32,000 bases of DNA from the NCBI GenBank assembly GCA_016784105.1, contig JADHVG010000004.1:1-32000 (forward strand). The letters are read 5' to 3'. Source of the stretch: Candidatus Woesearchaeota archaeon. GTDB taxonomy: Archaea; Nanobdellota; Nanobdellia; Woesearchaeales; GW2011-AR4. Below the pieces are notes generated by a model. It ran no database searches and was not told the origin of the DNA. It saw nothing but the letters and a program-made list of their open reading frames with translations. The translations under genes and the position numbers were made by a program. Positions 1 through 20,543 of the stretch are shown here, piece by piece (position 1 is the first letter of the stretch; every line of letters begins with the position of its first letter).

Positions 1-472
1 GGAATTCATGCCTCGGATCACCACCCTATATATGGATCAGATATCTGAGCATCAGAGAGATTTAACTAATTCCGCTACCTCCAGATTTGTTGCTGAGATT
101 CTAGCAGCTTTTTACATTTCTGTTTCCAGATTAAACAGGACTATGGCAAACTTGGTTGTTGATAAAGAAAACATAAAGAAAAATTTTGATCTGAACCGTG
201 GCATGATTGTTGCAGAACCTTTGTACATTCTTTTAGCTGCTCACGGTCATCCTGATGCGCATGAAGCTGTTAGAGAATTAACTCTGAAATCCCAACAAAC
301 AAAAAAACCGTTGCAAGACTTAATTAAAGATGAAGATTCGTTGAAGCCTTATCTAAAAAAATTTACTGTGAAGCAGATATCCGTTATAACCAATCCCGAG
401 AATTATGTTGGGATAGCCTCCCAAAAAGCATCTTCTATTTGCAGGTTCTGGAAGAAAGAGCTGAAGATTTAG
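1..472 (+). CDS. purB: adenylosuccinate lyase, C-terminal portion (5' end outside the window)
   Basis: The frame is open from the window edge to TAG at 470-472. The translated tail (SEHQRDLTNS, MIVAEPLYILLAAHGHPDAHEAVRELT, ENYVGIA) matches my memory of the fumarate-lyase superfamily ADSL C-terminal region. Confidence 0.75.
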   Translation, partial: EFMPRITTLYMDQISEHQRDLTNSATSRFVAEILAAFYISVSRLNRTMANLVVDKENIKKNFDLNRGMIVAEPLYILLAAHGHPDAHEAVRELTLKSQQTKKPLQDLIKDEDSLKPYLKKFTVKQISVITNPENYVGIASQKASSICRFWKKELKI

Positions 473-958
473 TCACTTTACGGTCTTACTAACGTACAAC
501 CACAATTTTTGCTGATAGCGTGCCATCATCCCAGATGGTGTTAACCTTAATAATTTCCTGAATGAAGTTTTGAAGTAAATAACTCCCCAGTCTTCAAATT
601 CTTGCAAAAATTTGTCAGTTCTTTTTATTTTCTCAGTAACACTTTTTACTATGTCCTTGACAGAATTTTTTGTAGAAGAATAGTAATCGTACATTTTTTC
701 TTTGACTCCTGAAATATAGTCTTTTAGGACACTTGCAAGATAACTTCCTTCATTTTTTTCAGTTTGAGAATTTAGGATTTTATTATTAAAAAAGAATTCC
801 TCTTTTTTCTCTTCCTTAGTTTTAGTTTGGGAAATATCGATGTGTTTGGATTCAGTTTGTAGTATGTTCTCCACAACTGAAGGCAATGTTTCTTCTTTTC
901 CTCTTTTTTGATTTCTTATAGCAGCGGAAATCTCAAGAATACTTTCCAAGCTATTCAT
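473..958 (-). CDS. hypothetical Lys/Glu/Ser-rich protein (161 aa)
   Basis: Long ORF with a TATA-like box (minus-strand cctttataac, 981-990) ending 23 nt upstream of its ATG. I recognise no family. Its stop codon directly abuts the purB stop. Confidence 0.5.
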   Translation of the reverse strand: MNSLESILEISAAIRNQKRGKEETLPSVVENILQTESKHIDISQTKTKEEKKEEFFFNNKILNSQTEKNEGSYLASVLKDYISGVKEKMYDYYSSTKNSVKDIVKSVTEKIKRTDKFLQEFEDWGVIYFKTSFRKLLRLTPSGMMARYQQKLWLYVSKTVK

Positions 959-980
959 GCCCTTGATGTCCGGAATTAAT

Positions 981-994
981 GTTATAAAGGTTTT
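981..994 (-). promoter_or_regulatory. BRE/TATA box of the divergent 161-aa ORF
   Basis: The minus strand reads aaaacctttataac, ending 23 nt before ATG 958. Confidence 0.45.
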
Positions 995-1013
995 GGTTCT
1001 CTAACATCTCAAT

Positions 1014-1029
1014 AAAAAACCTTATAAAC
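1014..1029 (+). promoter_or_regulatory. BRE/TATA box of purM
   Basis: aaaaaaccttataaac ends 22 nt before ATG 1051. Confidence 0.45.
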
Positions 1030-1050
1030 AAAGATTATTTCTATTTTGTC

Positions 1051-2139
1051 ATGTCTTATCAAAAAAGAGAATCAAAAGCTGTTGATGCAATCAAAAGTGC
1101 GATTCCTTCTTCTCTGAAAAGTGATATGTTAAAAGCAAGTAAGGGCATGTTCGCAGAGCTTTATGAAACTAAAGTTATTCCTAATCATTATCTCGCAACT
1201 GGAATAGATGGGGTTGGTACAAAACTAATCCTTGCGGAAGCAATGGGAATTTATGATACTATAGGTATTGATCTTGTGGCTATGAGTGCAAATGATCTTG
1301 CAACTTTAGGTCCGGTAAGTCCTTTCCTGTTCATGGATTATTTGGCATGCCAAAGTAAGATTCAAGAAAAAAAGATAACTGGAAAAATCATTAGAGGAAT
1401 TGTTAAAGCATTGAAGCAGTGTGATGCTTCTGCCATATTAAGAAATTCCATAAGGTTAAATTTTGGGAAGGGAGAAACTGCTTCTGTTGATGAACTTATT
1501 GATGCAACTAATCCTGGTTATGGTTTTGATGTTGCTGGCTGCATGCTTGGTTTCATTGAAAAAAAGAAGTTCAAGAAGCAAAAAGTGCAAAGCGGAGACA
1601 AAATAATTGCGTTAAAAAGTTCTGGGCCTCATTCCAATGGATACACTGATCTAAGACATCATTTATTGAATGGTAAGTTTGATTCCAGAAAGAAATACCG
1701 GAAATTGTACAAAGGTAAGTTTTCATTGAACTCTAAGTTTGATAATTCTACTATTGGAAAAAGATTGCTAGAACCTACTGAACTATACTTGAAAAACATG
1801 GTGAAGGTTTCTAAAAACTTGGATGTTCTGGGAATTAATAACACTGGTTATGGTCTTAAGAACTTAAACAGACTAAAAGGTTTTGAGTTCAGGATAAACA
1901 ATCCTATCAAGCCTCAACCGATCTTTGAACTTATGCAGACTCATTCTGGTTTCTCAGATAAGAAGATGTATGAGACCTTTAATATGGGCATGGGTTTTTT
2001 TATAATGGCAAGAAAGAAGGATGCTGATAAGATCTTGCAGATAACTAAAGGAAAGATTGTTGGAGAAGTAAGAAAAAGTTCTAAAACAAGAACAATTCTC
2101 GAAGATAAAAACAAAAAGATTTCTTTTGAGGGTTATTGA
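1051..2139 (+). CDS. purM: phosphoribosylformylglycinamidine cyclo-ligase (AIR synthetase)
   Basis: Collinear with E. coli PurM as I recall it: GIDGVGTKL, DTIGIDLVAMSANDL, GETA, YGFDVAGCMLG, SGDKIIALKSSGPHSNGY, LLEPTELY, MYETFNMGMGF. A TATA box ends 22 nt upstream of the ATG. Confidence 0.85.
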   Translation: MSYQKRESKAVDAIKSAIPSSLKSDMLKASKGMFAELYETKVIPNHYLATGIDGVGTKLILAEAMGIYDTIGIDLVAMSANDLATLGPVSPFLFMDYLACQSKIQEKKITGKIIRGIVKALKQCDASAILRNSIRLNFGKGETASVDELIDATNPGYGFDVAGCMLGFIEKKKFKKQKVQSGDKIIALKSSGPHSNGYTDLRHHLLNGKFDSRKKYRKLYKGKFSLNSKFDNSTIGKRLLEPTELYLKNMVKVSKNLDVLGINNTGYGLKNLNRLKGFEFRINNPIKPQPIFELMQTHSGFSDKKMYETFNMGMGFFIMARKKDADKILQITKGKIVGEVRKSSKTRTILEDKNKKISFEGY

Positions 2140-7505: not shown

Positions 7506-7623
7506 ATTTTTAAATCAATTATTAATTCTAATTTTGTTATAGCCATGTAGTGCATTAGTCCAACTGGTTACGCTAGGTTGTCACGCAAGAGAATTTTCCT
7601 CGCTTTGCTCGTCAAACTCACAT

Positions 7624-7725
7624 AGTCCCGTAGTGTAGTGGTCAATCATCTGAGACTCTGGATCTTGGGACCTAGGTTCGAAACGAGGGGTTATTCAACC
7701 ATCAACGAAAGTCCTGGCGGGGCTA
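7624..7725 (+). tRNA. tRNA-Gln (anticodon CTG) containing a 29-nt intron in the T-loop
   Basis: Hand fold: acceptor AGTCCCG/CGGGGCT, U8, D arm GTGT-AGTGGTCAA-TCAT, anticodon stem TGAGA/TCTTG, loop CTCTGGA (CTG at 7658-7660), T stem CTAGG/CCTGG, discriminator A, no encoded CCA, then TTTT. The spliced length is 73 nt. Confidence 0.85.
7683..7711 (+). other. non-canonical tRNA intron (between tRNA positions 59 and 60)
   Basis: A bulge-helix-bulge is formed by TTCG (7677-7680) / CGAA (7706-7709), with 3-nt bulges AAA (7681-7683) and AGT (7710-7712) next to the T stem. Excision restores the consensus T-loop TTCGAAT. Confidence 0.7.
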
Positions 7726-7776
7726 TTTTATTATTAAACAAAGCACTTAAAAACAAAAACTTGTTTTTTTCATAGA

Positions 7777-9000
7777 ATGATACAAGAACTACAGAATTTA
7801 ATTAATACCAGAAGAAAAGAAATAATTTCTTGGGTGGAGGAGGAAAGGTCTAAGGTTCCTATGCCAGTTTATTCTTCCTTTGACATAAGGGATAATGGCA
7901 CTAAAGCCAGTATTGTTGACTCTAATTTATTTCCAGCGGGATTCAATAATCTTTCCTGGGAGTCTAGTAAGTTAGCTTCCGAGTATTTTAAGAGATTTCT
8001 TCCAACATTATGCAAATCAAAAAATATCCTTATAGTTCCGGAAGCACATACTCGTAACTTATTTTATCTTTCAAACTTGAACAGTTTGAAAAAAATATTG
8101 GAAGATGCTGATTATAAAGTAGCCTTGGGAAGTGTACGTGAGGACATAGAGGATATATTAAAGGTAAAGGACAGCAACAACAAGATTTTAACGTTGGAAA
8201 AGATGAAGAATGTAAATGGAAAATTAACAACTAAAAGTTTTGATTGTGGTATGGTGCTTTTAAATAATGATTTCTCAATGGAAACTCCAGATTTATTGAA
8301 AGATGTCCATGAGTGCATTGCTCCTCCTATCAAACTTGGATGGTTGCACAGAAAAAAAAGCCATCACTTCAATCATTTTTGTAAGTTGATTAACGAGTTC
8401 TCTAAAAAAATGGATATTGATGATTGGTTATTATGCCCAAGAACACATGAAGTTGACGATATTGATTTCATGACTGGAAAGAATGTGGAGAAGATTGCAG
8501 AAGCTGCTGACAAGATAATATGGGAGAGCAATGAGAAATATAAAAAATATAAAATCAAGGGGAAACCTCATGTGTTTGTTAAAGATAATTCTGGAACGTA
8601 CGGTATGGGTGTTTTTAGCGCTTATTCCGGAAAAGAAATTCTTGAGCTAAATAGCAAGCAAAGAAGAAAGATGAAATCCGGAAAAGAAAAGAATCCCATA
8701 AGCTCAGTTATAATCCAAGATGGAATTTCCACAAGATTCAATGTAAAATCTCATGCTGCAGAACCGGTTATCTATTCTGTTGCTGGAAAAGTTGTGGGGG
8801 GTTTCATGCGGATTCATGATTCAAAAGATCAAGAGCAAAGCCTTAACGCTCCCGGAGCAAAATTTGATGTCTTGCTTAAGGATAATATAACAAAACCCAT
8901 AATAGACTTCATAGGAGATAACACTCAGATATCTCTGTATAGCTTGCTTGCAAATATGGCAAATATTGCTATAGGGAAAGAGATGGAAGACGCAAAATGA
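7777..9000 (+). CDS. gshA: glutamate--cysteine ligase, bacterial stand-alone GshA type
   Basis: The N-terminal block VYSSFDIRDNGTKASIVDSNLFPAGFNNL resembles the FY.SVD.RNAGFK..PVD.NLFPGGFNNL signature I remember from proteobacterial GshA (Pfam GshA family). It is coupled to gshB by an ATGA overlap. Confidence 0.65.
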   Translation: MIQELQNLINTRRKEIISWVEEERSKVPMPVYSSFDIRDNGTKASIVDSNLFPAGFNNLSWESSKLASEYFKRFLPTLCKSKNILIVPEAHTRNLFYLSNLNSLKKILEDADYKVALGSVREDIEDILKVKDSNNKILTLEKMKNVNGKLTTKSFDCGMVLLNNDFSMETPDLLKDVHECIAPPIKLGWLHRKKSHHFNHFCKLINEFSKKMDIDDWLLCPRTHEVDDIDFMTGKNVEKIAEAADKIIWESNEKYKKYKIKGKPHVFVKDNSGTYGMGVFSAYSGKEILELNSKQRRKMKSGKEKNPISSVIIQDGISTRFNVKSHAAEPVIYSVAGKVVGGFMRIHDSKDQEQSLNAPGAKFDVLLKDNITKPIIDFIGDNTQISLYSLLANMANIAIGKEMEDAK

Positions 9001-9914
9001 AATTTTTATTTGTTATTGATCCAATTGAGAACTTAAACTTAGAAACAGATTCCACAATAGAGATAATGGATGAGTGTTCAAAAAAGATAGAAATTGATTA
9101 TTGTGAAACCCGAGATCTTTTTTTTGACAAAAGCAAGGTATATGCAACCTCTACCCAAATTTTGTTGAAGAACAAGAGATATAAAAAAGTAAAGGCTGAA
9201 AAAAAATTGTTGGATTTCTTTGATTTAATATTGATGAGGAAAGAACCTCCGTATGATCTGAACTATCATTACGCTACCATGCTCTTGGACAAAACAAAAA
9301 CTAAAGTTATTAACTCTCCTCAAGGTTTAAGAAATGCAAATGAAAAGCTTGCCATTTTGAACTTTCCTGAGATAATCCCCAAAACCATTGTTACTAAAGA
9401 AGAAAAGAAAATAGTTGAGTTTGTCAATACAAATAAGAAAGCTGTTATTAAACCGATTCATCTGTTTGGAGGACAAGCAGTCTCCATTCTTGAAAAAAAT
9501 GATAGAGATCTAAAAAAGAAAATTCATGATATAATAAAGAAAGAGCAGGATTATGCTATAGTGCAAGAATTTATTGAAGAAACGTACAAAGGAGACAAAA
9601 GAATTTTTTTGCTTAATGGAAAACTTTTAGGTGGGATCCTTAGAGTTCCTAAGAAAGGGGATTTTAGGGCTAACATGGCTGTTGGAGGAAAACCTCAAAA
9701 ATATATAATAACAAATAAGGACAAAAAGATAATAAGAATGATCAGGCCTTACCTAAAAAAAGAGGGTCTTGCGTTAGCAGGAATTGATGTTGTTGGAAAT
9801 AAGCTTATTGAGATTAACGTTACTTGTCCCACGGGACTAGTACAGATAAAGGATTTTGATAAAAATAACATAACTAAAGATATAGTGTCTTATTTAGTTA
9901 AAGAGGCAACATGA
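8997..9914 (+). CDS. gshB: glutathione synthetase (ATP-grasp)
   Basis: Collinear with E. coli GshB as I recall it: VIDPIENLNLETDST, LILMRKEPPYD, NSPQGLRNANEKL, VIKPI..FGG, GDKRIFLLNG, RANMAVGG, AGIDVVGNKLIEINVTCPTG. Confidence 0.85.
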   Translation: MKFLFVIDPIENLNLETDSTIEIMDECSKKIEIDYCETRDLFFDKSKVYATSTQILLKNKRYKKVKAEKKLLDFFDLILMRKEPPYDLNYHYATMLLDKTKTKVINSPQGLRNANEKLAILNFPEIIPKTIVTKEEKKIVEFVNTNKKAVIKPIHLFGGQAVSILEKNDRDLKKKIHDIIKKEQDYAIVQEFIEETYKGDKRIFLLNGKLLGGILRVPKKGDFRANMAVGGKPQKYIITNKDKKIIRMIRPYLKKEGLALAGIDVVGNKLIEINVTCPTGLVQIKDFDKNNITKDIVSYLVKEAT

Positions 9915-19781: not shown

Positions 19782-20543
19782 TTATCTAGAACTATTCTCG
19801 AACATCTGAGTTAGAGCAGACACAAAATAAGGGCTTTTTATCCATACTCCTGCATCGTATTCTGGGGATGCTCCCGCCATGATGAAGAATATTTCATTGT
19901 CATCTACGCTGACAAATCTTGCGTCGTAATTTGTGTTTACAACTTCAACATTGTTGACATCAATTTTTACATCTGATGCATTAGTGTAAAGTTTTGTTTG
20001 AACTTTATTTTTGATAAGGTTGCTGTTGGTTTTTCTTAGCACTTTTAGTTTGTGTTTTATTCCTTCGTTATCGGTTACTATCAGGGCTTTTTCTTTTGCT
20101 CTCATAAGCATGTCTTTCATGAATCTGTTAACGTTACTTCTTCCCACAACCGAATCAGTTATGCTTTCAATATCAACCTTTTTGATTCCGGTTTTGTGTA
20201 GTAATTCCAGTTCTTTGAACAGGTCAGTCTCGCTTAGATTTTCCACAATCTTTATTTGTTCATCTGCTTCTCTTTGAAGTTTGTTCTTTACTCTGTCCAC
20301 AACAGCATCTGGCTGCACAGCAATATATTTTATTGGTTTCCCAACCTTCATGATTATGAATCCTTTCTTTTCAAGACTTTCTAGAACGTCATAGCACCTG
20401 CTTCTTGGAACTCCGCTTATGTCTGCAAGTTCGGATGCTGCTGCAATCCCTCTGCTTAGGAGTGCAGTCCATATTTTTACTTCATAAATGTTTAATTTGA
20501 ATCTTTGCCGTAACTCGTTCAGAGTTTCATTTTGCATTATCAT
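19782..20543 (-). CDS. TrmB-family transcriptional regulator
   Basis: An N-terminal wHTH (LNIYEVKIWTALLSRGIAAASELADISGVPRSRCYDVLESLEKKGF) plus a TrmB-type C-terminal domain. The TATA ctttataaac ends 24 nt upstream of the ATG. Confidence 0.8.
   Translation of the reverse strand: MIMQNETLNELRQRFKLNIYEVKIWTALLSRGIAAASELADISGVPRSRCYDVLESLEKKGFIIMKVGKPIKYIAVQPDAVVDRVKNKLQREADEQIKIVENLSETDLFKELELLHKTGIKKVDIESITDSVVGRSNVNRFMKDMLMRAKEKALIVTDNEGIKHKLKVLRKTNSNLIKNKVQTKLYTNASDVKIDVNNVEVVNTNYDARFVSVDDNEIFFIMAGASPEYDAGVWIKSPYFVSALTQMFENSSR

Follow-up and report, generated by a model that had tools for sequence, protein, structure and literature searches.

Bulge-helix-bulge (BHB) introns interrupt archaeal tRNA genes at several places, and position 59/60 is a listed non-canonical intron site (PMC4090602). 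Introns of this kind at 59/60 have been described in Crenarchaeota (Thermoproteales) and Nanoarchaeota (Marck & Grosjean 2003; Sugahara et al. 2008; reviewed in PMC4090602). Under the BHB rule, each bulge is cut behind its second nucleotide, and the motif can be transplanted from one tRNA position to another (PMC4090602). In parallel, disrupted tRNA genes were found together with an epsilon2 EndA in ARMAN-2 / Candidatus Micrarchaeum (PMC3239211). PMC5829648 reports that DPANN alpha4 EndAs carrying an L3 loop go with more disrupted tRNA genes, in a survey that took in a Woesearchaeota and a Pacearchaeota genome. The same study takes incomplete DPANN tRNA sets to suggest unidentified disrupted tRNA genes and calls for manual curation of such cases.

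Here, we describe a tRNA-Gln(CUG) gene of a DPANN archaeon that is, in all likelihood, a working gene with a 29-nt, protein-spliced archaeal intron at position 59/60. Both this position and disrupted DPANN tRNA genes are already published, and the gene is a further instance of each. It shares with the crenarchaeal and nanoarchaeal 59/60 introns the insertion point, the general logic of an outer tRNA stem, a 4-bp helix between the loop and the 3' end of the intron and splice sites in bulges, and the occurrence of relaxed hBH / HBh' forms at one site. Unlike the crenarchaeal examples, it resides in a low-GC (~35%) DPANN host, and, compared with earlier 59/60 systems, the intron can be traced at one tRNA-Gln locus across six lineages, with one intron-less allele. 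The locus, together with a related tRNA-Val gene introduced below as L188, belongs among the disrupted tRNA genes of the superphylum covered by PMC3239211 and PMC5829648; the latter does not appear to describe it. Neither this gene nor its relatives change the known splicing mechanism; what they reveal is a DPANN clade in which one orthologous tRNA locus has retained a T-loop intron.

The DNA studied, called the window throughout, is a 32-kb stretch of Candidatus Woesearchaeota archaeon (GCA_016784105.1, contig JADHVG010000004.1, positions 1–32,000). Its G+C content is ~35%, and it encodes the archaeal markers S3Ae, L21e, FttA, a proteasome subunit, RNA polymerase Rpb4/RpoF and TrmB, along with gyrase B, HisRS, ProRS and a gshA-gshB pair. 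The named homologs of its S3Ae are all from "Candidatus Woesearchaeota archaeon", at 35–48% identity, and a search with the S3Ae protein found no close relatives among species-representative genomes. The host is a low-GC, mesophile-type DPANN (Woesearchaeota-like) archaeon. Genes around the tRNA-Gln locus are ordered gyrB-PQ-loop-S3Ae-[gap]-gshA-gshB-RIO. Three contigs, each from a different sample (ENA and Logan), carry an identical tRNA-Gln precursor, which rules out an assembly artefact; one of them is a 118-kb metagenome contig that contains the window (ENA ERZ24794642).

Table 1. Parts of the tRNA-Gln gene in the window, elements of its precursor fold, and intron-bearing tRNA-Gln genes of related lineages (L-numbered loci, with positions in the locus named). 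In the two splice-site rows, the slash marks the predicted cut.
Feature	Position	Strand	Remarks
Exon 1, tRNA positions 1–59	7624..7682	+	ends with T-loop nt 54–59 TTCGAA; exon pairs covary across six lineages
Intron, 29 nt, ACGAGGGGTTATTCAACCATCAACGAAAG	7683..7711	+	between tRNA positions 59 and 60
Exon 2, tRNA positions 60–73	7712..7725	+	starts with T60; no CCA encoded
Acceptor stem AGTCCCG / CGGGGCT	7624-7630 / 7718-7724	+	U3-G70 wobble pair
Discriminator A73	7725	+	
D arm GTGT-AGTGGTCAA-TCAT	within exon 1	+	
Anticodon arm TGAGA-CTCTGGA-TCTTG	loop CTCTGGA 7656-7662; anticodon CTG 7658-7660	+	
Variable region GGAC	exon 1	+	
T stem CTAGG / CCTGG	7672-7676 / 7713-7717	+	
T-rich tract TTTTATTATT	7726..7735	+	directly 3' of the discriminator base
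Helix H, 5' strand TTCG (T-loop nt 54–57)	7677..7680	+	stacks directly on the T stem; minimum-energy fold
Helix H, 3' strand CGAA (in intron)	7706..7709	+	pairs with 7677-7680
5' splice site AA/A plus C	7681..7684	+	4-nt side of a 4x2 internal loop, opposite A7704 and A7705
3' splice site AG/T	7710..7712	+	clean 3-nt bulge; T60 is its third nucleotide
Inner helix h'	7685..7703	+	GA/TC 7685-7686/7702-7703, then a 2x1 internal loop
h', distal part GGTT/AACC	7689-7692/7697-7700	+	closes loop ATTC; minimum-energy fold
L006/L007	2697-2890 (L006)		CUG; intron 121 nt; gene order as in the window
L186/L187 (Tara Oceans and another sample)	2641-2819 (L186)		CUG; intron 106 nt; gene order as in the window
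L165	3513-3668	-	CUG; intron 83 nt; RIO kinase (55%) and HisRS (69%) in common with the window
L176	2529-2621		CUG; intron 20 nt; RIO kinase (54%) in common with the window
L158	11661-11764		UUG; intron 31 nt; archaeal contig with DNA ligase, FtsZ and 29% G+C

The initial annotation had read the locus as a tRNA-Gln(CUG) gene whose positions 59 and 60 are separated by a 29-nt intron, and all its coordinates and strings agree with the sequence. After deletion of the intron, ARAGORN recognizes a 73-nt tRNA-Gln(ctg), and the identity is borne out by a score of 69.2 bits against a tRNA-Gln profile hidden Markov model (HMM). The anticodon loop is uninterrupted and, as had been claimed, there is thus no intron at the usual 37/38 site. 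In the alignment of tRNA-Gln relatives, the A1-U72 pair and the discriminator A73 are invariant. Downstream of the gene, the T-rich tract is a probable archaeal transcription stop.

In its unspliced form, the gene escapes standard annotation tools, as had been anticipated. ARAGORN called no tRNA anywhere in the 32-kb window, and Rfam at gathering thresholds returned nothing there. At a permissive setting, the Rfam tRNA model (RF00005) scored the unspliced gene at 17.0 bits against a threshold of 29 bits, and aligned the wrong 3' half; a score under the gathering threshold is what would be expected of an interrupted gene. The intron-bearing relatives are likewise mis-called or fall under threshold with both programs. 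Annotation by ARAGORN or Rfam would leave the genome seemingly without a tRNA-Gln(CUG), which is an artefact, and a tRNA missed in this way also skews estimates of completeness and codon capacity for DPANN genomes. tRNAscan-SE 2.0 looks for non-canonical introns by default, with BHB models trained on phyla other than those of DPANN archaea, namely Crenarchaeota, Euryarchaeota and Thaumarchaeota (PMC8450103).

Folded alone, T arm plus intron adopt a minimum-energy structure that is exactly the one proposed, in which the first four nucleotides of the T-loop are paired with the 3' part of the intron in a central 4-bp helix, called helix H. Between AAA and CGAA, the interior of the intron spans 22 nt, and an exact CGAA at the required place has P ~0.003 per intron at the given base composition. 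On the 3' side, the splice site is a proper helix-bulge-helix, with the clean AGT bulge between helix H and the 5-bp T stem acting as outer helix. On the 5' side, AAA is not a clean 3-nt bulge and is found within the 4x2 internal loop. The inner helix h' is weak, made of 2 bp and 4 bp with an interruption, and a strict hBHBh' architecture, defined by a 3-nt 5' bulge and an inner helix h', is not formed. With its 5' site in an internal loop and its h' interrupted, the gene can be placed in the relaxed BHB class only, in line with the relaxed motif and weak intron-side helix originally suggested. The fold of the whole precursor is no more stable than that of shuffled sequence (z = +0.73), a value not counted against the model because only local structure matters.

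A direct comparison with the canonical 37/38 intron reveals the same geometry on a different arm. In both cases, a 7-nt loop is split between its sixth and seventh nucleotides, loop nucleotides 1–4 pair with the 3' end of the intron, and the cuts follow the second bulge nucleotide. The canonical hBHBh' is built on the anticodon arm and has a strict 3-nt 5' bulge, whereas in the window the motif is built on the T arm, and its 5' site occupies a 4x2 internal loop that adjoins a weak inner helix.

Introns at 59/60 of tRNA-Gln were identified in five further lineages and range from 20 to 121 nt (Table 1). L165, L176 and L158 were picked up by scanning metagenomes for tRNA-Gln genes in which position 60 is not T; L006 and L186 show synteny with the window, in the order gyrB-S3Ae-tRNA-gshA. 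The intron termini ACGA...CGAAAG are equal in L186 and the window. The interiors of the L006, L186, L165 and window introns gave no significant alignment, and only the termini are in common. All six lineages keep the T stem, the 4-bp helix between nt 54–57 and the 3' end of the intron, and an NN/T60 bulge immediately before the 3' strand of the T stem, with CGAA, or a covarying TGAA, in five of the six. Several relatives come closer to the textbook motif than the window gene does: L176 folds as a strict hBHBh', L186 differs from it by one extra unpaired G, and L158 lies within 1.2 kcal/mol of the strict fold.

An alignment of exons and intron termini from the six lineages was used to assess covariation. 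With the cloverleaf plus helix H as the model, 96% of cells are paired and 11 pairs have changed on both sides; none of 500 shuffles matched either value, and slid controls pair 27–48% of cells. Among the pairs that covary are some of the acceptor and T stems whose two strands lie on either side of the intron. Within helix H, 23 of 24 cells are paired and there is one compensatory change, TTCG/CGAA to TTCA/TGAA (G-C to A-U). This pattern of substitutions shows that the exon pairing and the splice-site motif have been conserved under selection.

Outside tRNA-Gln, a structural scan of the window and of a 51-kb stretch of the contig found no other interrupted tRNAs of the 59/60 type. In a related genome, L188 (GCA_053532555.1), a tRNA-Val(UAC) gene is interrupted at 59/60 by a 31-nt intron whose TTCA/TGAA helix and AG/T bulge have the same geometry as in tRNA-Gln; ARAGORN calls the gene only after deletion of the insert. 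Taken with the tRNA-Gln series, this gene indicates that T-arm introns are recurrent in the related group. A tRNA with two insertions adjoins the L188 tRNA-Val.

The exact position of the splice junction was examined with a profile HMM built from 76 unique intron-less archaeal tRNA-Gln genes. A loose tRNA-Gln pattern in genome contigs retrieves mostly intron-less methanogen genes, which serve as a reference set and not as relatives. Of eight registers, joining 7682 to 7712 gave the best, full-length match, and the other seven scored 57–67 bits. The resulting product is identical at 64 of 73 positions to an intron-less tRNA-Gln(CUG), L098. Cuts after the second nucleotide of each bulge, between 7682 and 7683 and between 7711 and 7712, yield the T-loop TTCGAAT, and the junction is predicted to read GGTTCGAA joined to TCCTGGCGGGG. 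The same junction is carried by an intron-less, syntenic ortholog, the tRNA-Gln(CUG) of L194, which reads ...GGTTCGAATCCTGGCGGGGCTA and, from T-stem position 51 to its 3' end, is identical to the spliced product predicted here. A junction of TTCGAA to T, with exon 1 ending at A59 and exon 2 beginning at T60, had been part of the original proposal and was upheld on both counts. A shifted register, in which the first cut follows, for instance, 7680 or 7681 and exon 2 begins with 7710 or 7711, would produce TTCGAGT and move the intron to 58/59 or 57/58. Owing to the A-rich junctions, shifts of -1 and -2 do leave 73 nt that form a cloverleaf whose T-loop looks plausible (64.3 bits), yet they score below 59/60, would replace an A at position 59 that is found in every inspected intron-less archaeal tRNA-Gln gene, and disagree with the BHB rule and with a T60 that is the third bulge nucleotide in all six lineages; we regard them as very unlikely. 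The positions of the cuts, after 7682 and after 7711, are thus inferred from the BHB rule (PMC4090602) and L194.

Two further explanations concern the fate of the insert rather than its borders. The 29-nt insertion into the T-loop could have inactivated the gene, leaving a pseudogene whose function is provided by another copy or by tRNA-Gln(UUG). Standard finders make no call, as would suit a dead gene, and the tRNA-Gln gene is gone from the locus in L005, so that loss is tolerated there. A pseudogene is nonetheless highly improbable: six lineages keep the insertion at the exact site with compensatory exon changes across it, all six preserve the splice-site helix and bulge despite interiors that cannot be aligned, and the cloverleaf of the spliced tRNA is sound except for a U13-U22 mismatch, which is its sole defect and is present in most relatives. 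In addition, CAG accounts for 55 of 186 Gln codons in 22 window ORFs, and a tRNA-Gln(CUG) therefore has codons to read. Alternatively, the insert might splice itself out, or might be retained as an enlarged T-loop in the mature tRNA. The 51 kb of contig, in which no endonuclease gene is found, would allow for this, but at 29 nt (20 nt in L176) the insert falls far below the size of a group I or group II intron, neither the window nor the relatives' long introns match any Rfam family, and the conserved features are exactly those that EndA recognizes (PMC4090602). Moreover, a retained insert would be expected to sequester T54-G57 and block the T-loop/D-loop contacts. Of the readings considered, self-splicing or retention is the most remote.

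Removal by the archaeal splicing endonuclease at a relaxed BHB is the most likely course, given the junction, the conserved layout, the covariation and the intron-less ortholog. In the precursor, T-loop nt 54–57 (TTCG) pair with the intron CGAA, in a helix stacked on the T stem. From archaeal tRNA splicing as it is known elsewhere (PMC4090602), we infer the steps of cleavage and ligation and the type of enzyme as follows. EndA would cut at the two predicted sites, an RtcB-type ligase would join the exons into the T-loop TTCGAAT, and the intron would be released, probably as a circle. Because nt 54–57 are paired in the precursor, the T-loop/D-loop contacts would form only after splicing.

With its relaxed 5' site, the motif suggests an endonuclease whose cutting does not depend strictly on a BHB. 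A broad-specificity enzyme in this host, as the initial annotation had it, would fit the DPANN literature (PMC5829648), in which non-canonical introns and endonucleases of broad specificity have both been described (PMC3239211, PMC5829648); a strict-specificity endonuclease might not cut a motif with such a 5' site and such a weak h'. The tRNA-Gln series, the tRNA-Val of L188 and its neighbor support an endonuclease able to cut relaxed motifs outside the anticodon loop. Neither endA nor rtcB was found in 51 kb of the contig, in a search that for endA covered the genes called in the flanks and, within the window, every ORF of at least 90 aa that is not contained in a larger one.

The orthologous loci also record differences in the intron itself. 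The introns of the orthologous genes are 20, 29, 83, 106 and 121 nt long, and L158, included by its intron position and not by synteny, adds one of 31 nt. L194, in which the intron is missing, has the gene order S3Ae-tRNA-RIO-HAD and promoter-proximal sequence that resembles L006. RIO kinase identities place L165, which has the intron, outside the group formed by the window, L006, L186 and L194; the simplest history is an ancestral intron that would have been lost precisely in L194. Among relatives with data, L005 is the closest (gshA 90% identical); it has an unrelated stretch of ~112 nt in place of the tRNA-Gln gene, which indicates that the gene can be lost or moved. With six intron lengths, one intron-less allele and one gene loss, the ortholog series is a small natural data set on intron gain and loss.

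The sequence between the S3Ae stop codon and the tRNA gene (7541..7616, + strand) resembles parts of the relatives' precursors. The segment AGCCATGTAGTG..TAGTCCAA resembles nt 1–22 of exon 1 of the relatives, and agrees at 11 of 12 positions with the start of their tRNA-Gln; the middle part resembles nt 6–30 of the L006 intron, and the last part resembles nt 8–30 of the L186 intron, with 19 of 23 positions identical. In a colinear gapped alignment to the L186 precursor, the element scores 29.4; none of 500 shuffles (14.2 +/- 2.3) gets that far, and the best of ~2050 other sliding windows stops at 26.5. Taken singly, the BLAST pieces lack significance (E 0.1–0.5), and the resemblance to the L006 intron is weak (p ~0.03), since chance gives better matches in other parts of the window. 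We considered and dropped the idea that the intron or leader encodes a small RNA, as 7541–7616 contains no C/D-box motifs; at permissive thresholds, Rfam found no RNA family in the introns or in the upstream element when the window, the long introns of the relatives and the extended contig were searched.

Tentatively, 7541–7616 may be the decayed remnant of a second tRNA-Gln copy that had a long intron, reduced to what looks like exon 1 and the 5' half of that intron, a reading that these scores make suggestive only and that we hold to be rather doubtful. By the same measure, the S3Ae-tRNA-Gln locus could conceivably record tRNA-intron turnover in progress, though we would not expect it to. 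The mechanism by which such introns shorten, vanish or move is still called unknown (PMC4090602), and the relic, if real, would point to duplication and recombination as a route by which an intron is shortened, lost or moved.

The position of the tRNA-Gln(CUG) gene varies in content among relatives of the window. A syntenic relative, L194, carries an intron-less gene at this locus, within the order S3Ae-tRNA-RIO-HAD and with both gshA and gshB missing. Its upstream sequence resembles that of the L006 gene, which is interrupted by a 121-nt intron at position 59/60. The intron-less L194 gene implies precise intron loss within the clade. In L005, the closest relative with data, the tRNA-Gln gene itself is missing from the spacer between S3Ae and gshA: the flanking spacer sequence is kept, and the gene is replaced by an unrelated stretch of ~112 nt that contains the hairpin GAGACAAAATT / AATTTTGTCT and was matched by neither ARAGORN nor Rfam.

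Features at the tRNA-Gln locus, in related genomes and elsewhere on the contig
Feature	Location	Strand	Remarks
gshA-gshB pair	window 7777-9914	+	adjoins tRNA; also L006, L186
S3Ae-gshA spacer without tRNA-Gln	L005 1490-1600		JGI 3300009513
Intron-less tRNA-Gln(CUG)	L194 1020-1092		syntenic position; ENA ERZ27267408
Possible decayed tRNA-Gln copy	window 7541-7616	+	alignment to relatives' tRNA-Gln and long introns
tRNA-Gln(CUG) with intron	L016 5245-5370		Candidatus Parvarchaeota MAG JAFCDO010000032.1
tRNA-Val(UAC), 31-nt intron at 59/60, CCA encoded	L188 1538-1645		NCBI GCA_053532555.1, JAIYOS010000065.1
tRNA with two insertions	L188 1669-1779		directly downstream of tRNA-Val(UAC); JAIYOS010000065.1
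Bacterial S15 leader match, sub-threshold (Rfam)	window 20055-20166	-	inside TrmB-family ORF
Purine-biosynthesis cluster	L192 10487-19340 and window 8-2139		L192 lies upstream of window on the same contig

Directly 5' of the window's tRNA lies a stretch resembling a decayed version of the 5' end of a relative's tRNA-Gln. It matches 11 of the first 12 nucleotides of that gene and a piece of its D-loop, and the tRNA-like part is followed by pieces similar to the long introns of L006 and L186. Taken singly, the pieces are not significant by BLAST; aligned colinearly to the L186 precursor, they score 29.4 against 14.2 +/- 2.3 for shuffles and rank top against ~2050 control windows.

Departures from the standard tRNA form were also found in other genomes. 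The tRNA-Gln(CUG) of L016 contains a very A/T-rich intron of ~55 nt at or adjoining the canonical anticodon-loop position, whereas the intron in the window's clade occupies the T-loop. On L083 and L111, contigs of Methanomethylophilaceae / Methanomassiliicoccales type, tRNA-Gln(CUG) diverges from the family consensus within the T arm or 3' acceptor strand; they may be truncated, may mark integration sites, or may be additional interrupted genes. The related genome L188 carries two interrupted tRNAs, neither called by ARAGORN on the unspliced sequence. The second has two insertions, one of ~12 nt within its anticodon loop and one of ~26 nt within its T arm; whether it reads as Gly-GCC or Cys-GCA hinges on which junction is chosen.

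The glutamate-cysteine ligase (gshA, PF08886) and glutathione synthetase (gshB) genes are conserved as a pair beside the tRNA on several DPANN-like contigs; to our knowledge, full glutathione synthesis is uncommon among archaea. The S15 leader match scores 22.6 bits, below the cut-off of 39.5 bits (E = 0.29), and is most likely due to chance. The purine cluster, comprising adenylosuccinate lyase, SAICAR synthase, AIR carboxylase, PurS, parts of FGAM synthase and an AIR-synthase-like gene, is notable because DPANN archaea are, as far as we know, usually described as being without de novo purine synthesis.
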